Positions 32,052 to 39,873 of a stretch of DNA of 64,000 nucleotides are shown in pieces. Within the stretch, counting starts at the first letter, position 1; the number at the start of each line of letters is the position of its first letter. The DNA comes from Cyanobacteria bacterium auto_48_18 (GTDB lineage Bacteria; Cyanobacteriota; Vampirovibrionia; Obscuribacterales; Obscuribacteraceae): assembly GCA_036170915.1 (NCBI GenBank), contig JAVHQC010000026.1, positions 79,404 through 143,403 on the forward strand. The letters are read 5' to 3'. The position numbers and the translations under genes are program-made. The notes beneath the pieces are model-generated. The model was not told where the DNA came from. It was given only the letters and a program-made list of their open reading frames with translations, and did no database searches.

Positions 32052-33440
32052 TTAAAAGCGCAGATTGCCAATGCCCCGGTAGAGCATACGATTGACACTG
32101 CGATTAAGTTGTCTGGAGACTTGCTTGCCGGTTTGCGATACTATGCGTGGTGCCCGCATAGGGTGATGAACAGCGGGTCTTCGCACCTGTTGCTGGGGCA
32201 CGAATACATTACTGCCGGTATTGTTTAAAGTGCCACTGCCGGTGCTACCAAGGTTTGGATTAAAGACAGCGCCTTTTTGCGGCATGACTGTCTGCATCAT
32301 ATTCATAATTGCCGGCATAAAACCAGCCGCGGATCCCTGACTGAAAGCAGGCATAGCCTGCCCACCACCATTTGCGCCCATATTCATACTGGCGCCGTTG
32401 CCCATATTGCCCATATTGCCCATGTTGCCCATGTTTCCCGAAGACTGTACTCCGCCCTGCAATTGTTCTTGCTCAAGTACGTCCCCTAGCAGTGGTGCTT
32501 GCCCAGTAGCTTGCTGTTGACTTTGTCCTGCAGGCCTGAACGAGCTGGGTGGAAAAGCTGGTGGGCTACTGTTGTTATTGTTGAAATTATTACCGCCATT
32601 ACTATTGTTATTTGTTACCGGCGTATTCCATTGCGACTGGTTAGTTTGTTGTGGTGGCTGATAGTTGCCCACACCCTGGCTGGAAAAGGCACCAGCATTA
32701 TTATTATTATTATTATTATTATTGTTTGCTTGTGGCTGTGATCCGCTGTTCGGAGTAACCCACCCCGATGTGCCCATACTGCTACTTTGATTGGCACCGC
32801 CCATGCCACCACTTACTCCACCGCCCATGCCACCACTTACTCCATTGCCTATGTTACCGCTGTTACCACTCATATCACTGGTATCAGTCGTGCCACCAGG
32901 TGTATTCCAGCCTGATGAGCCGATTTGACCACCAGAATTTGAATTGCCTTGGCTATAATTTGCCGGTGCTTGCGTGTTCGTCACCCAACCCTGACCACCT
33001 TGCTGCGTGTCTTGGGTAGATTGATCCATGTCGCCACTGGGTTCTACCCAATCGCTGGCGCCTTGCTGGCTGCTCTGCTGTTGGGCACCATTTCCACTAG
33101 TGCCAGAACCCATCTGCTGCCATTCAGATTGCCCCACAGGCTGTTGTCGTTGTTGAAACTGTACAGGTTGCTGAGTAGAAAATTGAGGTGAACCTTGCTG
33201 TACATTTGGCTTCAGAGGTGCTAATTTGGCCACCGGCTTTTTCACTGCCACCGCAGTTTTTTTAACAGCTGCCTTATTATTTAAGAAGGCACCTGGCGGT
33301 TGATTTGCCCAAGTCTGGCTGTCATTGAACGGATTCTGAGCATTTACTGCTTGTACTGTCAGGCAAGACACTGCCAGACAAGATACGGTCAGAGTGGCAG
33401 CCATAGCCATGGTGCCTGTATGTAATTTGGACCGCTTCAT
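32052..33440 (-). CDS. Secreted low-complexity (G/N/Q/S/M-rich) protein with basic C-terminus
   Basis: Signal peptide ending AVNA/Q; poly-N and MGN repeats; regularly spaced Trp. Confidence 0.75.
   Translation of the reverse strand: MKRSKLHTGTMAMAATLTVSCLAVSCLTVQAVNAQNPFNDSQTWANQPPGAFLNNKAAVKKTAVAVKKPVAKLAPLKPNVQQGSPQFSTQQPVQFQQRQQPVGQSEWQQMGSGTSGNGAQQQSSQQGASDWVEPSGDMDQSTQDTQQGGQGWVTNTQAPANYSQGNSNSGGQIGSSGWNTPGGTTDTSDMSGNSGNIGNGVSGGMGGGVSGGMGGANQSSSMGTSGWVTPNSGSQPQANNNNNNNNNNAGAFSSQGVGNYQPPQQTNQSQWNTPVTNNNSNGGNNFNNNNSSPPAFPPSSFRPAGQSQQQATGQAPLLGDVLEQEQLQGGVQSSGNMGNMGNMGNMGNGASMNMGANGGGQAMPAFSQGSAAGFMPAIMNMMQTVMPQKGAVFNPNLGSTGSGTLNNTGSNVFVPQQQVRRPAVHHPMRAPRIVSQTGKQVSRQLNRSVNRMLYRGIGNLRF
32697..32723 (-). 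repeat. Perfect (AAT)9 microsatellite encoding poly-Asn
   Basis: (att)9 on the + strand. Confidence 0.95.
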
Positions 33441-33448
33441 CTTAGCTC

Positions 33449-34537
33449 CTAACGATTGATCATACGATTGATGAGCAGATTCATCATTCCGCCGTTGTTG
33501 TTGTATCCGTATGGGTTGCCGTAGCCATTCATGCCGCCCATGCCGTTCATCATGCCGCCCATGCCGTAACCATTCATGCCACCCATACCGTTCATCATGC
33601 CGCCCATACCATTCATACCACCAAAGCCGCCTAAGCCGCCCATACTCCCCATCATGTTGTTGCCGCCGAGCATGCGGCCCATCATGCTGGTATTGTTACC
33701 CATCATGCCGCCCATCATGCCGGTGTTACCACCCAACATGCTGCCAGCCGCACGCGCAGCCATGACAGTACCTAAAGTTTTTACCAGCGCCGAACCCACA
33801 GCCGCAGCCTTACTCGGCTGTCCAGGGGCTTCGGCTGTTGTAGCCGTCGGGGTTGCGGTATTGTCGTCAAACTCAGTGGGCCAGTTTGGATCGGCCGCCG
33901 CAGGTTGAGTAGCCGCTGGTTGCTGGTCAAATTGATTTTGTTGCACCGAACCTTCTACAGGTGCATTGGTAGACTGTGGTGTGAAGCCACTATTCTGTTG
34001 GTATCCCTGACCTTGGTAATTTCCTGAGGGTTGAAATCCTTGAATCTGGCCTAGCGGCCCACCTTGAGGCTGAAAAGCTGGTGGCTGCTGACCCTGCTGA
34101 GCCTGTTGAAACTGCTGAGATTGATATGCCGGTTGCTGATAGCTTTGCTGCGGATTTCCTTGATAACCTGGTGGTGCCTGCACGGGCTGCTGGAAATTGC
34201 CAGGCTGCTGATAGTTTTGGGGCTGAAAATTCTGGCCCTGATTAGAATAATTTGGTGCCACTTGCGGTGGCGCCCCATTTTGCAAGGGTACAGAAGAGTT
34301 TGAATTTTGGTATTGATTTTGAATCTGATTTTGATTGACTTGTTGTTGGCTCTGGTTAGTGCTTTGCACAAAGCTACCTGGTGGTGCGTTACCACCTTGA
34401 GCAAGAGTCGGTGCGGCCAAAGTAATGCTCAAGCCAATGCCAGCACTGAGACCGATTGCCATTATTTGCAGCGAAGCGCTCGTCATTGAAACGAGCGCCT
34501 TGCGGATTGCTACTTTCGCACTTTTGCTATTTTGCAT
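33449..34537 (-). CDS. Secreted low-complexity protein (Q/P-rich N-half, G/M/N-rich C-half)
   Basis: Long signal ending PTLA/Q; QQP repeats; GGMMNG repeats. Confidence 0.75.
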   Translation of the reverse strand: MQNSKSAKVAIRKALVSMTSASLQIMAIGLSAGIGLSITLAAPTLAQGGNAPPGSFVQSTNQSQQQVNQNQIQNQYQNSNSSVPLQNGAPPQVAPNYSNQGQNFQPQNYQQPGNFQQPVQAPPGYQGNPQQSYQQPAYQSQQFQQAQQGQQPPAFQPQGGPLGQIQGFQPSGNYQGQGYQQNSGFTPQSTNAPVEGSVQQNQFDQQPAATQPAAADPNWPTEFDDNTATPTATTAEAPGQPSKAAAVGSALVKTLGTVMAARAAGSMLGGNTGMMGGMMGNNTSMMGRMLGGNNMMGSMGGLGGFGGMNGMGGMMNGMGGMNGYGMGGMMNGMGGMNGYGNPYGYNNNGGMMNLLINRMINR

Positions 34538-35923: not shown

Positions 35924-37549
35924 CTACTTTTTTGCATTTTCATTGTTTTTTTTATGAGCCGCATCTTTGAAGCCATATTCCGCCCATCGGCTCGCTACCT
36001 GATCCTTAACCTCTTCAGACATGACAATGGGAGTGGGCCATTCGCGCTCAAATCCTTCTGATTTCCACTTGCGAGTGGCATCGATGCCAACTTTTGAACC
36101 ATATCCCATTAGTGGCGAGGCATGGTCGAGTATATCTACCGGCCCTTCCACGAACATCATGTCGCGCTTGGGGTCGGTATTGCCAAAAACGTGCAAGGCT
36201 ACCTCTGAGAGATTGTGCACGTCTACGTCTTTGTCTACAACGATGGCAAACTTGGTGAACATCATCTGACCCAGGCCCCAGATGGCACTCATTACTTTGC
36301 GAGCATGGCCGGGAAAGCGTTTGTCGATGGCCACAATCACGCAATTATGGAATACCCCTTCCCAGGGCAAATTCATATCTGTAATCTCAGGCACCAGCAT
36401 CTGCACCATAGGCATAAAGATGCGCTCGGTGGCTTTGCCTAAAAAACAGTCTTCTTGAGGCGGTTTGCCTACGATAGTGGTTTGATAAATCGGGTTTTTT
36501 CTGTGGGTTACAGCAGTGACATGATAGACAGGAAAAAGCCCGGCCAGGCTGTAAAAGCCCGTATGGTCGCCAAAAGGCCCTTCTCGCTTCAGATCTTTCT
36601 GGTCCACATATCCTTCTATAACAATTTCGGCTGAGGCCGGCACTTCGAGGTCGATGGTTTTACATTTGGCCAGGCGTACCGGGCTCTGCCTGAGGAAACC
36701 GGCAAATATTAACTCGTCTATTTCGGGTGGTAGCGGTGCTGTGGCAGCATAAGTAATCGACGGATCAGCGCCGATTACTACAGCTACCTCCAGTCGGTTG
36801 CCCGGCTTTTCGTATTGTTCTTTTTCAAAGAAAGTGCCGTAATTTGGCGGCTCGCTTGGTTGCCCCGCCGGTGAATCGGGGTGAAGAGCGGCACCATTGC
36901 CCGATTGAGTTGCATTCGTGATTGAATCTCGCCTGGAGTTTTCGAAATTTTTGGCGCCGTCATGATGTTTATGCCAGTGCATTCCGGTGGTGGAATTATC
37001 GAATTTTTGCAGCCGATACATACCCACATTGCGGTTGCCGTTGTGCGGATCTTTAGTAATGATCGCTCCCATGGTAATGAATGGACCACCGTCTTCTGGC
37101 CAGCAGGTAATGATTGGAATTTTGTCCAGCATCGGATCATTTGGGTTGGTGATCACGACTTCCTGACAGGGTGCCGGACCGCTAACGACTTTAGGGGGAA
37201 ATTTTCCCACTTCCATAATTGTGGGAAGGAAAGCCAGTTTAGCCATAAAACTTTCAGGCACTTTTGGCTTGATGAAAACGCGAATGCGGTCGGCGATGGT
37301 GTCGAGGTCGTCGACTTCAAGCGACAGACACATTCTTTTCATCGAGCCTTGCGCGTTGATGAGCACCGGCATGTCATAGCCAATAACGTTTTCAAAAAGG
37401 ATAGCTTTGTTTTCGCTGCCTGGCAGTTTGCTTACTCGGTCAGTGATTTCGGCAATTTCAAGATGAGCCGAGACCGGTACTTTGATGCGCATTAGCTCGC
37501 CAGCCTTGTCTAAAGCTTCGATGAATTCGCGCAGATCGTTATAAGCCAT
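35924..37549 (-). CDS. UbiD-family decarboxylase, menaquinone (futalosine pathway) type
   Basis: AYNDLREFI, WPEDGGPFIT, NVGMYRLQ, EGPFGDHTGFY, MSAIWGLGQMMFTK, GSKVGIDAT. Confidence 0.9.
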   Translation of the reverse strand: MAYNDLREFIEALDKAGELMRIKVPVSAHLEIAEITDRVSKLPGSENKAILFENVIGYDMPVLINAQGSMKRMCLSLEVDDLDTIADRIRVFIKPKVPESFMAKLAFLPTIMEVGKFPPKVVSGPAPCQEVVITNPNDPMLDKIPIITCWPEDGGPFITMGAIITKDPHNGNRNVGMYRLQKFDNSTTGMHWHKHHDGAKNFENSRRDSITNATQSGNGAALHPDSPAGQPSEPPNYGTFFEKEQYEKPGNRLEVAVVIGADPSITYAATAPLPPEIDELIFAGFLRQSPVRLAKCKTIDLEVPASAEIVIEGYVDQKDLKREGPFGDHTGFYSLAGLFPVYHVTAVTHRKNPIYQTTIVGKPPQEDCFLGKATERIFMPMVQMLVPEITDMNLPWEGVFHNCVIVAIDKRFPGHARKVMSAIWGLGQMMFTKFAIVVDKDVDVHNLSEVALHVFGNTDPKRDMMFVEGPVDILDHASPLMGYGSKVGIDATRKWKSEGFEREWPTPIVMSEEVKDQVASRWAEYGFKDAAHKKNNENAKK

Positions 37550-37658
37550 ATTAAAACTCCAGTTACAGATTCAATTCTAGAACTTGCAGCGGTCAGAAGA
37601 CATATAAAGAACTCGATTGTTATAAAGGGTTTGATTGAATGCACGGTTTACAAGTGAG

Positions 37659-37667
37659 TGCTAAGCT
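37659..37667 (+). promoter_or_regulatory. Extended -10 promoter element (TGcTAAGCT)
   Basis: TGn plus TAAGCT upstream of an SD-led small ORF and the structured region. Confidence 0.4.
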
Positions 37668-37703
37668 GGAAGATGGTCATATTGATATGTATGAGGTCTG
37701 ATT

Positions 37704-37802
37704 ATGCACCGCGTTTTTGCTTGTTTCTTTTGCCTGATGGCAGCTTCGTGGTTAGGTTTTCAATGTTTGACTGCTTGTATGCTTAATCGGCCTGGTGCCT
37801 GA
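37704..37802 (+). CDS. Putative 32-aa hydrophobic Cys-containing peptide (MHRVFACFFCLMAASWLGFQCLTACMLNRPGA)
   Basis: SD gaggt 37693-37697, 6-nt spacer, ATG 37704, TGA 37800-37802. Below the ORF-track size cutoff. Confidence 0.35.
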   Translation: MHRVFACFFCLMAASWLGFQCLTACMLNRPGA

Positions 37803-37959
37803 CTTGTTCACAAGTAGATATGCAAAATATATCTATATTCCTCTAGCTAGATCATTTGCCTGGTTCAGGTGCTTGGCTATCGAATGTCGTATCGAAACCC
37901 GCATCATCAGCTAGCTTGAGTGGATGCTGTGAATATACAAAAGATCTTCATCGGGGGAC

Positions 37960-37987
37960 TTCACAGCAATGCAATTTTCGCTATACT
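37960..37987 (+). promoter_or_regulatory. Sigma70-like promoter TTCACA-N16-TATACT
   Basis: -35 at 37960-37965 and -10 at 37982-37987. No gene lies downstream before the terminator. Confidence 0.45.
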
Positions 37988-38164
37988 AATTACATAAGCG
38001 GTGAGCACACACCAATAAATAAGTTGTGTGCTTTGAGCCGAGGGGTTAAGTGGAAACTTCAGGTCTGCGCAGACCGGAAACTGTAGCGATACCCGCTGAC
38101 TGTGGATTCTGACTTGAAGCAGTGAGAAATATCGAGCCTACGCAATAGGCAGTCAGACGATAGT

Positions 38165-38206
38165 AAAAACACCGCCGCAGATTTATCTGGGTGGTGTTTT
38201 TATTTT
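38165..38206. terminator. Bidirectional intrinsic terminator
   Basis: aaaaacaccgcc...ggtggtgttttt stem flanked by an A-tract and a T-tract; follows the stop of the minus-strand PDZ gene. Confidence 0.8.
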
Positions 38207-38227
38207 GAGCATTTACTGGGCGCACCA

Positions 38228-39154
38228 CTAGTGGTGTCGTTTCTCTAGGGGCGTATAGCTGTCGTTACGCTCTTCCAGCTCGGGTATCATTGTCGCTGGT
38301 GAACTATACAGGTCTGCAATAGGTTGCTTTGCTTGCTCGAGCATGGTGGCAATGCTTGCCTTTAGTTGCTCTTCACTCATGGCCCCGCGGTTGACATTGG
38401 TGCTGGGAATTATGCCGCGATTGCCGGGGATAAAAATATAAACCGGTTTGCTCTGCACTCGAAAATGATGAGCAAGATCGGCATACTTTGGGTCTCCCAC
38501 TGCGCTACTAATCAGTGAAATTGCTTTGAGTTCTGATTTGTCTTCGGCAGATTTACTACTGTGATCACTGATATACGCTTTTAGCGTCTCATTCGGTCCG
38601 GCCTCGCGATCAAAAAATTCGATCACTAGTGGTGCACTATGTAATTTGTGCAAAATTAAACTGGTGTACGAAAAATCGTTTTCTTTGGCCATGGCATCGC
38701 GTCGCAATAAAAAATCATGACGATTAAGACGACTCTGGGCTAGCAGATATTTGGTATCAGCTTCTTTGGGTAACTCAGATATTTTGGTGCGCATCAAATT
38801 GCGATAATTGACGACATTATCAACATGTGATTTTACCGCCACCAGCACAGCCGAATCTGGCGGGCCGCAAAGGTCTTGGTTGATTTCAAAATCTCCCATC
38901 ATTGATGCATTGCGAGCGTCGATGGAAATTATCTGATCGTCTTTTTGAATGCCTGCTAAAAGGGCCGGCGATTCTTCCATGACGCGAGTAATTACAGGAT
39001 ATTCTTGGTCAAGAAAAGCAAACTGCAGCCCAACTACACCAACGCTTGGAATTTCTACTTTCGCTTCTTCCGGTTTGCTCAAAAGCAGTGGCAGCACCAC
39101 TACCGTTACGGAAAGAAGCGCTAGAACAATAACAATCACCAGGCCTGGCCGCAC
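38228..39154 (-). CDS. Membrane-anchored PDZ protein with thioredoxin-like C-terminal region (no CxxC)
   Basis: N-terminal TM; GVVGLQF...SPALLAGIQKDDQIISIDA; PLVIEFFD...LAHHFRVQSKPVYIFI. Confidence 0.7.
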   Translation of the reverse strand: MRPGLVIVIVLALLSVTVVVLPLLLSKPEEAKVEIPSVGVVGLQFAFLDQEYPVITRVMEESPALLAGIQKDDQIISIDARNASMMGDFEINQDLCGPPDSAVLVAVKSHVDNVVNYRNLMRTKISELPKEADTKYLLAQSRLNRHDFLLRRDAMAKENDFSYTSLILHKLHSAPLVIEFFDREAGPNETLKAYISDHSSKSAEDKSELKAISLISSAVGDPKYADLAHHFRVQSKPVYIFIPGNRGIIPSTNVNRGAMSEEQLKASIATMLEQAKQPIADLYSSPATMIPELEERNDSYTPLEKRHH

Positions 39155-39336
39155 TAGAAACCTCTCGACACAGCCCTAATGACGTTCCACAGCCTCTGTC
39201 AGTTCAAACATATAACTTGCAATATGCGCAAAATGGCTTTAATACTTGATTTTATCTATATTGGGGAACAAATAGCCCTTTTACTCGCCTCTAGCCATGC
39301 GCGTGCCTTGAGCATGCGCGTAAAAAGGAGCCTATT

Positions 39337-39873
39337 ATGAACGACAAAATTGATCATCGGCACCCGCAGATAATAGGGCATTATCTCGAAGCCGGATCTT
39401 TGGCAATCGTACCGGAGCGTCTTCGCCAACTGGCTGAACACGAGCATCCGCAGGTTAGAGCTAGAGTAGCTGAAAATCCTAATACTGAGAAAGATCTTTT
39501 GCTCAGACTGGCTGGTGACAGCGATTGTGATGTGCGCTGCGCCGCTGCCAGCCACACAGGCAGACACATGGAAGTTTTAGAGCTGCTGATGAGAGACGAA
39601 AATCCAACCGTGCGTTTTGTGCTGGCAGAAGATGCTAACTGCCCCGAAGAAATTCTCGAAGCCTTACTTTATGACAGCAATCCTTATGTGTGCGACAGAG
39701 CCAATCGCACAATTAAGAGGCTGAGAACTGCGGGTTTTGGCAGAAACATGTCTGCAGCGGCACCAGGGTTTCCTGCGCGAGCGACGATTAACCCAACAGC
39801 ACCTAATATGCCTGACGCACCATATATTCCAAAACGCTCATTTAAAAAAGAAAATAGACGGGCGATCGGTTAG
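39337..39873 (+). CDS. HEAT/LRV-like repeat protein
   Basis: LAEHEHPQVRARVAENPNT, LAGDSDCDVRCAAA and LMRDENPTVRFVLA repeats; SD aaggag. Confidence 0.8.
   Translation: MNDKIDHRHPQIIGHYLEAGSLAIVPERLRQLAEHEHPQVRARVAENPNTEKDLLLRLAGDSDCDVRCAAASHTGRHMEVLELLMRDENPTVRFVLAEDANCPEEILEALLYDSNPYVCDRANRTIKRLRTAGFGRNMSAAAPGFPARATINPTAPNMPDAPYIPKRSFKKENRRAIG

Follow-up and report, generated by a model that had tools for sequence, protein, structure and literature searches.

The noncoding RNA poplar-1 and a small coding gene in an intergenic region of an Obscuribacteraceae genome

Described RNAs and the locus

The Csr/Rsm decoys (CsrB/C and RsmX/Y/Z) are produced from multicopy stand-alone genes with an upstream site and a terminator, and they carry repeated simple sites. 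Another bacterial RNA, raiA, is similar in size to poplar-1 (Rfam RF03041), the family to which the RNA of the present locus belongs. Poplar-1 was presumably first described by Weinberg et al. in 2017, and the original drawing is reportedly found in the supplement of that work. For raiA, the available part of PMC12968392 reports an abundant RNA whose function is unknown and which binds KhpA-KhpB. Like raiA, poplar-1 is a pseudoknotted bacterial noncoding RNA; however, raiA has a closing P1 helix, whereas poplar-1 is an open row of hairpins that is found in one order only, has a dedicated promoter box and shares no sequence or model match with raiA (the Rfam model of raiA gave no match at this locus). 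With the Csr/Rsm genes poplar-1 shares the multicopy stand-alone arrangement, a conserved upstream site and an intrinsic terminator, but its fold is rigid and covarying, and neither the many loop GGA motifs nor the host CsrA/RsmA of that class was found. Because GGA motifs are few (1-6 per copy, median 3) and CsrA is missing in 25/27 genomes of the order (present in 2/27, and absent from the source genome), poplar-1 is not a Csr/Rsm RNA.

Poplar-1 has remained an orphan family with a near-empty literature. A search for poplar-1, RF03041 or noncoding RNA of Obscuribacter found one passing mention, and the main texts of PMC5737381, PMC13085918 and PMC12510878 do not contain the term 'poplar'. 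In the accessible part of the preprint 10.1101/2025.10.18.683149, poplar-1 is placed among the small RNAs enriched in drinking-water intracellular RNA. We found no paper that states the host order or copy number or that describes the promoter box, full length or kink-turn, and the original supplement may describe the motif.

The window analysed here is a stretch of 64,000 nucleotides from an Obscuribacteraceae genome, in which an earlier note had read the gap between a UbiD-family gene and a PDZ-domain gene as one novel structured RNA of 400-530 nt. The gap contains a 32-codon gene followed by one copy of the multicopy noncoding RNA gene poplar-1, an anatomy in which we place high confidence. 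The features are as follows.

35924..37549, minus strand: UbiD-family decarboxylase gene, divergent neighbour (Pfam PF01977/PF20695/PF20696)
37647..37667, plus strand: conserved promoter-like block with an extended -10 (TG at 37659-60, hexamer at 37662-67), aligned in the window and in 10 syntenic loci
37693..37696, plus strand: Shine-Dalgarno-like GAGG 5' of the 32-codon ORF, from the sequence, with a G-rich equivalent in orthologues
37704..37802, plus strand: 32-codon ORF (P0001), from codon-position variation in 12 sequences
37803..37952, plus strand: regulatory DNA upstream of the poplar-1 promoter, with a conserved box at ~37862-37880, ATAT-type repeats and an A-tract at 37942-44
37953..37961, plus strand: near-invariant GGGG(T/G)A(C/G)TT box at ~-41 to -33, a predicted activator site, from the copy alignment
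37980..37987, plus strand: extended -10 of the poplar-1 gene, with T, A and T invariant at -12, -11 and -7, from the copy alignment
37994..38202, plus strand: full-length poplar-1 RNA, ~209 nt, from conservation limits, alignment A1, model R1 and an RNA-library contig
37999..38040, plus strand: 5' hairpin with a predicted standard kink-turn, from conservation and covariation; its 5' strand lies outside the Rfam model
38032..38167, plus strand: Rfam RF03041 poplar-1 match (115.8 bits, gathering score 110.5, E 2e-26, model 1-141)
38043..38094, plus strand: central hairpin whose 10x10 internal loop is pseudo-symmetric, capped by hairpin 38062-75, from alignment and covariation
38096..38126, plus strand: hairpin with a loop at 38108-14 for which pairing with 38151-57 (pseudoknot) is predicted, from covariation
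38130..38162, plus strand: 3' hairpin with a conserved GCA loop and the bulged pseudoknot strand, from the Rfam model and covariation
38169..38202, plus strand: intrinsic terminator, a hairpin in which the bulged G38177 is conserved, followed by a U tail, from covariation
38228..39154, minus strand: PDZ-domain gene, convergent neighbour

Identity, boundaries and fold of poplar-1

The poplar-1 match was the only one reported by cmscan in 36500-39500 (E up to 10), and poplar-1 was also the only family found in the whole window at gathering level. Its score exceeds the gathering score over the full model, the consensus helices form and covary, and the gene stands alone with a terminator, no fixed downstream gene and a promoter whose activity is predicted. 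Over the RNA, no second Rfam family was found, either in the window (E ≤10) or in 12 loci (E ≤5). This is the known family RF03041, which is now better defined. The statement that no known family matches the RNA was thereby overturned, and the claim of novelty fell with it, as the comparison with Rfam by cmscan had been named beforehand as the check on that claim. On the other hand, the description of a stand-alone, structured, plus-strand noncoding RNA that ends in a terminator is supported by homologue conservation and by the predicted promoter and terminator of its own.

The further statement, which set the RNA apart from RNase P, tmRNA, SRP, 6S and the known riboswitches, also held, as no such Rfam match was obtained at the locus. 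The tmRNA and SRP RNA are located elsewhere in the source genome, RNase P RNA occurs in 29/39 genomes of the order and sub-threshold 6S-like matches in 17/39, and for these reasons poplar-1 is not a stand-in for a housekeeping RNA. The source assembly (86% complete) yielded neither RNase P RNA nor its protein nor 6S RNA, which probably reflects assembly gaps; a replacement of RNase P or 6S by poplar-1 was rejected because relatives with poplar-1 possess them.

Six full copies of poplar-1 occur in the source genome, and a seventh is apparently split over the contig ends C30:130327-130420 and C31:1-55, which suggests that contigs C30 and C31 join. Many copies in relatives also lie at contig ends. 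Among 60 relatives, poplar-1 was detected in 37/39 other genomes of the order Obscuribacterales (34/36 of the same family and 3/3 of the other family of the order) and in 0/21 from other orders, with 1-10 matches per positive genome, often in tandem. G031 and G033, which belong to the same family and are 92% and 86% complete, gave no match with either the Rfam model or model R1, and poplar-1 was not found in two genomes of another order. When model R1 was applied to 150 other genomes of the phylum, with 15 candidates scored per genome, two matches of 19-20 bits were obtained, compared with 170-202 for true copies. In a species collection, a core-pattern scan found at least 148 stretches; among 80 listed matches, most were titled Obscuribacterales, Obscuribacter or Melainabacteria and some carried the names of other taxa. 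In a tree of 93 copies, old syntenic paralogues stand beside expansions within single genomes, in which the promoter-plus-RNA cassette was duplicated repeatedly. The old sites, one at ubiD and one at tRNA-M16 peptidase-dUTPase, have been kept across genera, and ubiD-linked copies occur both in the genus and in other genera.

The limits of the gene were taken from an alignment of 145 copies with flanks, derived from 220 pattern matches of which 173 were distinct. It comprises the GGGG box (G columns conserved at 0.98-1.0), a variable spacer, the extended -10 and a body at ~37993-38205, downstream of which no conservation was found in these copies. The RNA is ~209 nt long by these limits, considerably shorter than the 400-530 nt previously proposed. 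A strict box pattern was matched by 43/65 copies, most of the others having the G variant, and the distance from box to -10 is 29 or 30 nt in 41/43 copies. The source genome has 15 GGGG[GT]ACTT sites, 7 of which precede poplar-1 copies. Readings of the box as an NtcA or alternative-sigma site were set aside, since only a half-site or the wrong spacing was present relative to the consensus sequences. In a hold-out set of 112 metagenome copies picked by the core pattern only, the kink-turn 5' strand and the -10 were present in 99/112 and the GGGG box in 92/112; about 11 of the 13 misses are fragments fused to unrelated sequence. ATAT-type motifs are enriched upstream (37803-37940), at 2.5 vs. 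0.5 per 200 nt in shuffles. A genus-specific DnaA-box-like 9-mer was also seen upstream of the poplar-1 promoter, and control through DnaA boxes was rejected because the strict box occurs in just 3/43 copies.

Contigs from RNA libraries cover the poplar-1 RNA in 5 runs of 4 studies, in which DNA can be present. One of them is identical to 37994-38199, although contigs cannot prove strand, ends or level. The contigs of four RNA libraries (three studies) are restricted to 37984-38215, and in one study two runs gave contigs with loose ends, upstream of 37994 and downstream of 38201-38202, that we take to be adapters. In 4 RNA runs the contigs lack 37549-37983 and the flanking genes, contig absence being uninformative, and a fifth RNA run has only a short distant piece at the ubiD start; contigs of DNA-type runs span the promoter. 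The contig ends agree with the promoter-based start at 37994, which may be read as a weak hint.

A number of RNA fragments fused to unrelated sequence were observed (L185:1-150, L265, L272, L276, L277, L287, L301, L311, L325, L328, L362 and L380), one of which forms the start of an RNA-virus-like contig in a viral collection. The fusion junctions are scattered over ~25 nt, and because of this scatter the fragments are probably chimeras in which an abundant RNA was joined to other sequence in the library or the assembly; the scatter also speaks against the idea that the truncated copies mark integration sites.

For the analysis of the fold, 177 copies were extracted, 65 were kept at <90% identity, and 60 were aligned after five with mis-set 5' ends had been dropped. 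The structure is an RNAalifold consensus plus one pseudoknot (56 pairs in 10 helices). In the 60 copies, 96.7% of cells are paired and double changes occur in 40/56 pairs, a level reached by 0/500 shuffles and compared with 32-37% for slid controls, with the proviso that these controls ignore relatedness and that the nested structure was derived from the counted alignment. From 5' to 3', the helices form the kink-turn hairpin, the symmetric-loop hairpin, the pseudoknot-loop hairpin, the 3' hairpin and the terminator, preceded by a 5' leader of 5-6 nt. Many of the 46 invariant columns lie in loops.

The base of the 5' hairpin fits the definition of a standard kink-turn given in the available part of PMC8191799 and is predicted to be one. 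Its elements are a 3-nt bulge (38032-34), tandem G.A/A.G pairs, a -1b:-1n pair C:G and a 3b:3n pair G:U, the last of which matches neither of the 'good folding' rules in the same part of that paper (3b = C, 3n = G). The CGGUGA of the kink-turn is conserved at 0.99-1.0 in 145 copies, and its distal helix has double changes in 6/7 pairs. At the sequence level, the bulge, the tandem G:A/A:G pairs and the flanking helices are present, including in the 99/112 hold-out copies; the kink-turn was counted in 133/135 copies, a count that is partly circular. As far as the available part of PMC8191799 goes, the four kink-turns among 224 motifs are Actinomyces-1, drum and HOLDH along with RAGATH-18, and poplar-1 is not listed. 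Proteins of the L7Ae family are nearly absent in poplar-1 hosts (L7Ae in 2/39 genomes of the order).

The internal loop of the central hairpin repeats RGAAACnnYA on both strands (38052-61 and 38076-85). A four-pair hairpin with a GGAA tetraloop, which had been quoted in this region, forms in only 9/60 copies and has a pair probability of ≤0.07. The stem of hairpin 38096-38126 has double changes in 8/8 pairs. In the pseudoknot, double changes occur in 5/6 pairs and at least 6 bp can form in 127/133 copies, with a mean of 6.0 within the same copy vs. 4.9 for crossed pairs. The T-tailed terminator that had been placed downstream is real, although a simple terminator scan missed it: 98.9% of its cells are paired and 8/11 pairs show double changes. 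Because of an A-tract at 38165-69, it is likely to be bidirectional and to serve the convergent PDZ gene as well.

Besides, a tandem subfamily (L107:2500-3115, L119, L120 and L181) was observed in which both pseudoknot strands are swapped for an A/U-rich pair and an A-U pair closes the kink-turn, that is, natural compensatory variants.

Both the Rfam model and the full gene contain the same four inner helices. However, the model (141 positions) starts inside the kink-turn and ends before the terminator, so that the full gene adds ~38 nt at the 5' side, ~35 nt at the 3' side and the promoter. The pseudoknot is not in the Rfam structure line, and the original supplement drawing may already show the pseudoknot or terminator. 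An RNA synthesised from the catalogued model would be without half of the kink-turn, and the full boundaries, promoter box, fold and host order should make structure determination and the search for partners easier. Some parts looked by eye like hammerhead, group I P4, SRP or cobalamin motifs, but neither covariation nor Rfam supported this.

The small gene upstream

The earlier note had seen no credible ORF in the gap. The 32-codon ORF at 37704-37802, with GAGG upstream, argues otherwise: across 12 sequences, third codon positions are variable at 27/33 sites, compared with 9/33 for first and 3/33 for second positions, extra synonymous codons number 39 vs. 7 extra amino acids, and the stop (TGA, TAG or TAA) stays at one shared place among orthologues. 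By these comparisons the ORF is under clear coding selection. Its product is hydrophobic by hydropathy, Cys-rich and predicted to contain a single membrane helix, and most orthologues have 35 codons. The ORF was found in 8/10 other genomes of the genus and 0/50 other genomes of the order, always opposite ubiD in the loci found. The syntenic ubiD-poplar-1 loci in the genus share a common block at 37704-37800, and at a Ca. Obscuribacter sp. locus (L063) the peptide is identical. No Pfam family and no Atlas match was obtained for the peptide, and its exact sequence had no match in a collection of 15 billion proteins.

The extended -10 at 37659-67, proposed earlier as the start of a large RNA, is real and aligned in syntenic loci, but it fronts the small ORF rather than such an RNA, and the block 37647-37667 is the predicted promoter of this ORF. 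The 5' half of the supposed RNA is a small coding gene followed by promoter DNA, and the stem pairing 37925 with 37960 lies in promoter DNA, as do the remaining quoted stems of 37789-37968. This locus illustrates how a promoter and a microgene can masquerade as half of a large RNA. Hydrophobic small ORFs are found upstream of 6/91 poplar-1 copies, and 4 of these 6 are the 32-codon gene itself. The ORF probably encodes a genus-specific membrane peptide that is unrelated to poplar-1, an unannotated candidate in its own right. A type I toxin-antitoxin pair of small ORF and RNA was rejected, as both are on the same strand, their pairing is not conserved and so few copies have an ORF upstream.

Proposed modes of action and rival readings

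At 49 poplar-1 loci, the neighbours on either side are on the same strand in 24 cases, on the opposite strand in 22 and absent in 3 (crude ORF calls). No recurring partner family was found among the 71 of 92 neighbours scanned by Pfam, old syntenic sites aside, and the consistent same-strand downstream gene of a riboswitch or cis-leader was not seen at the 49 loci. Since the flanking genes are random, poplar-1 very probably acts in trans. Moreover, neither a conserved ORF nor a long unpaired seed was found in the RNA by copy alignment, from which we infer an action by shape. A dedicated activator may bind the GGGG box and turn on all copies together, and duplication of the promoter-plus-RNA cassette would raise the RNA dose, presumably under selection. 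The RNA would fold compactly through the predicted kink-turn, the symmetric loop and the pseudoknot and might work by its shape; the simplest form of this would be a decoy keeping a protein occupied in trans, and the twofold loop would suit a dimeric partner. By analogy with the multicopy Csr/Rsm RNAs, though with another partner, protein titration of this kind may be the mechanism, a proposal to which we give slightly less than an even chance; against it, a rigid fold with so many invariant columns fits a structural RNP or an aptamer as well. Should poplar-1 prove to be a decoy whose dosage is tuned and whose partner is new, it would represent a lineage-wide regulatory system in non-photosynthetic cyanobacterial relatives of water systems.

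Several known RNA-binding proteins were considered as partners. Hfq was found in 0/27 genomes of the order and TROVE/Ro60 in 8/27, with none in the source genome or among the neighbours, so that the co-occurrence and proximity to Ro60/TROVE of bacterial Y RNAs are lacking here. CsrA, Hfq, Ro60 and L7Ae were all rejected because their occurrence does not track with poplar-1. More speculatively, poplar-1 might be the core of an undescribed class of regulated RNA machines, spread across the order and amplified many times, with its own activator and with a pocket, built from the twofold loop, the pseudoknot and an L7Ae-independent kink-turn, for the sequestration in trans of a dimeric protein or of a symmetric signalling molecule; taken as a whole, this picture is unlikely.

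A different and rather unlikely possibility is that poplar-1 is, like RNAs of the raiA/OLE/ROOL type, a structural or scaffold RNA that occurs in abundance. It would then have a compact tertiary fold that may associate with itself via the symmetric loop, general RNA-binding proteins (for example KhpA/KhpB) would bind it loosely, and it would serve in stress or dormancy instead of titrating a single regulator. Its length and pseudoknotted core resemble those of raiA RNA as presented in the available part of PMC12968392, its loops are highly conserved in sequence, and the fragments fused into unrelated contigs hint at abundance. A KH_KhpA-B gene is present in the source genome, but KhpA/B is widespread (10/14 control genomes), so its presence says little. 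There is also no match to raiA or another Rfam family, and the activator-like box and cassette duplication suggest a regulated dosage.

The loop and pseudoknot could alternatively form a ligand or metal pocket or a catalytic site, making poplar-1 a trans-acting aptamer or ribozyme. The invariant columns in loops and a kink-turn in an order nearly devoid of L7Ae would be in line with this, and the twofold loop might suit a symmetric ligand. Yet no conserved downstream gene and no alternative fold was found, no Rfam riboswitch or ribozyme matched, and the chimeric junctions are spread rather than gathered at one catalytic site, which makes this reading distinctly unlikely.

Base pairing was considered as well, as in the multicopy Qrr RNAs, here possibly with the mRNA of the small ORF through the long-range helix 37765-78/38145-58. 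This helix had been quoted correctly, with 14/14 pairs, 3 of them G-U, and all quoted stems were present at the positions given by a sequence check; the second helix (37789-802/37865-78) exists too, but with 13/14 pairs, one position being U-U. The several copies, the conserved promoter and the U-tailed terminator would fit a base-pairing small RNA, and the nearest orthologue retains 13 pairs with the small-ORF mRNA. However, of the orthologues whose 3' domain is complete, the remaining 6 retain only 8-9 pairs, and in two orthologues the helix is disrupted by synonymous changes. The pairing strand is the pseudoknot strand, there is no conserved unpaired seed, and Hfq is missing throughout the genomes searched; such a role is very unlikely.

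The earlier reading of one 400-530-nt RNA closed by the long-range helix is highly improbable. What speaks for it is that the helix beats 99/100 shuffles (when 37659-37993 was dinucleotide-shuffled, 1/100 sequences could form 14 pairs with the RNA downstream), and that in the source genome and two close relatives, unlike other loci, no spacer or hairpin lies between the small ORF and the poplar-1 promoter, so that read-through over 37674-38202 is possible. Nevertheless, the equivalent helix has ≤9 pairs in 47 other copies, the longest helix averages 7.2 pairs over all 48 copies vs. 7.3 for shuffles, and its pair probability is 0.11 even within the hypothetical read-through RNA; as a conserved structure it is ruled out. 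Its 5' strand corresponds to codons 21-25 of the 32-codon ORF, and its 3' strand coincides with the pseudoknot strand and 3' hairpin 38130-38162, so the proposed closing helix competes with covarying structure. Covariation in homologues, which the earlier note had asked for, is present for the ~209-nt RNA but absent for this helix. The folding signal against dinucleotide shuffles was likewise found for the whole span (z = -3.65 on the plus strand and -2.86 on the minus strand) but is confined to the 3' part: 37659-37993 has a z of -0.79, that is, no folding signal, compared with -5.42 for 37994-38202 and -2.5 once the terminator is removed. In addition, almost every copy retains the internal promoter.

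A selfish non-autonomous mobile repeat or an omegaRNA-like guide scaffold of a transposon nuclease might be suggested by the many dispersed and tandem copies, but it is hardly probable at all in view of the old syntenic copies kept across genera, 71 neighbours without transposase, integrase, reverse transcriptase or nuclease, the lack of a variable guide segment behind so short a 5' leader, and a single viral-collection match that looks chimeric.

Elsewhere in the window, the minus strand at 32052-34537 carries two long ORFs of low complexity in which Gln, Asn, Gly and Met are abundant; they have signal-peptide-like starts and are located downstream of an S41 peptidase gene.
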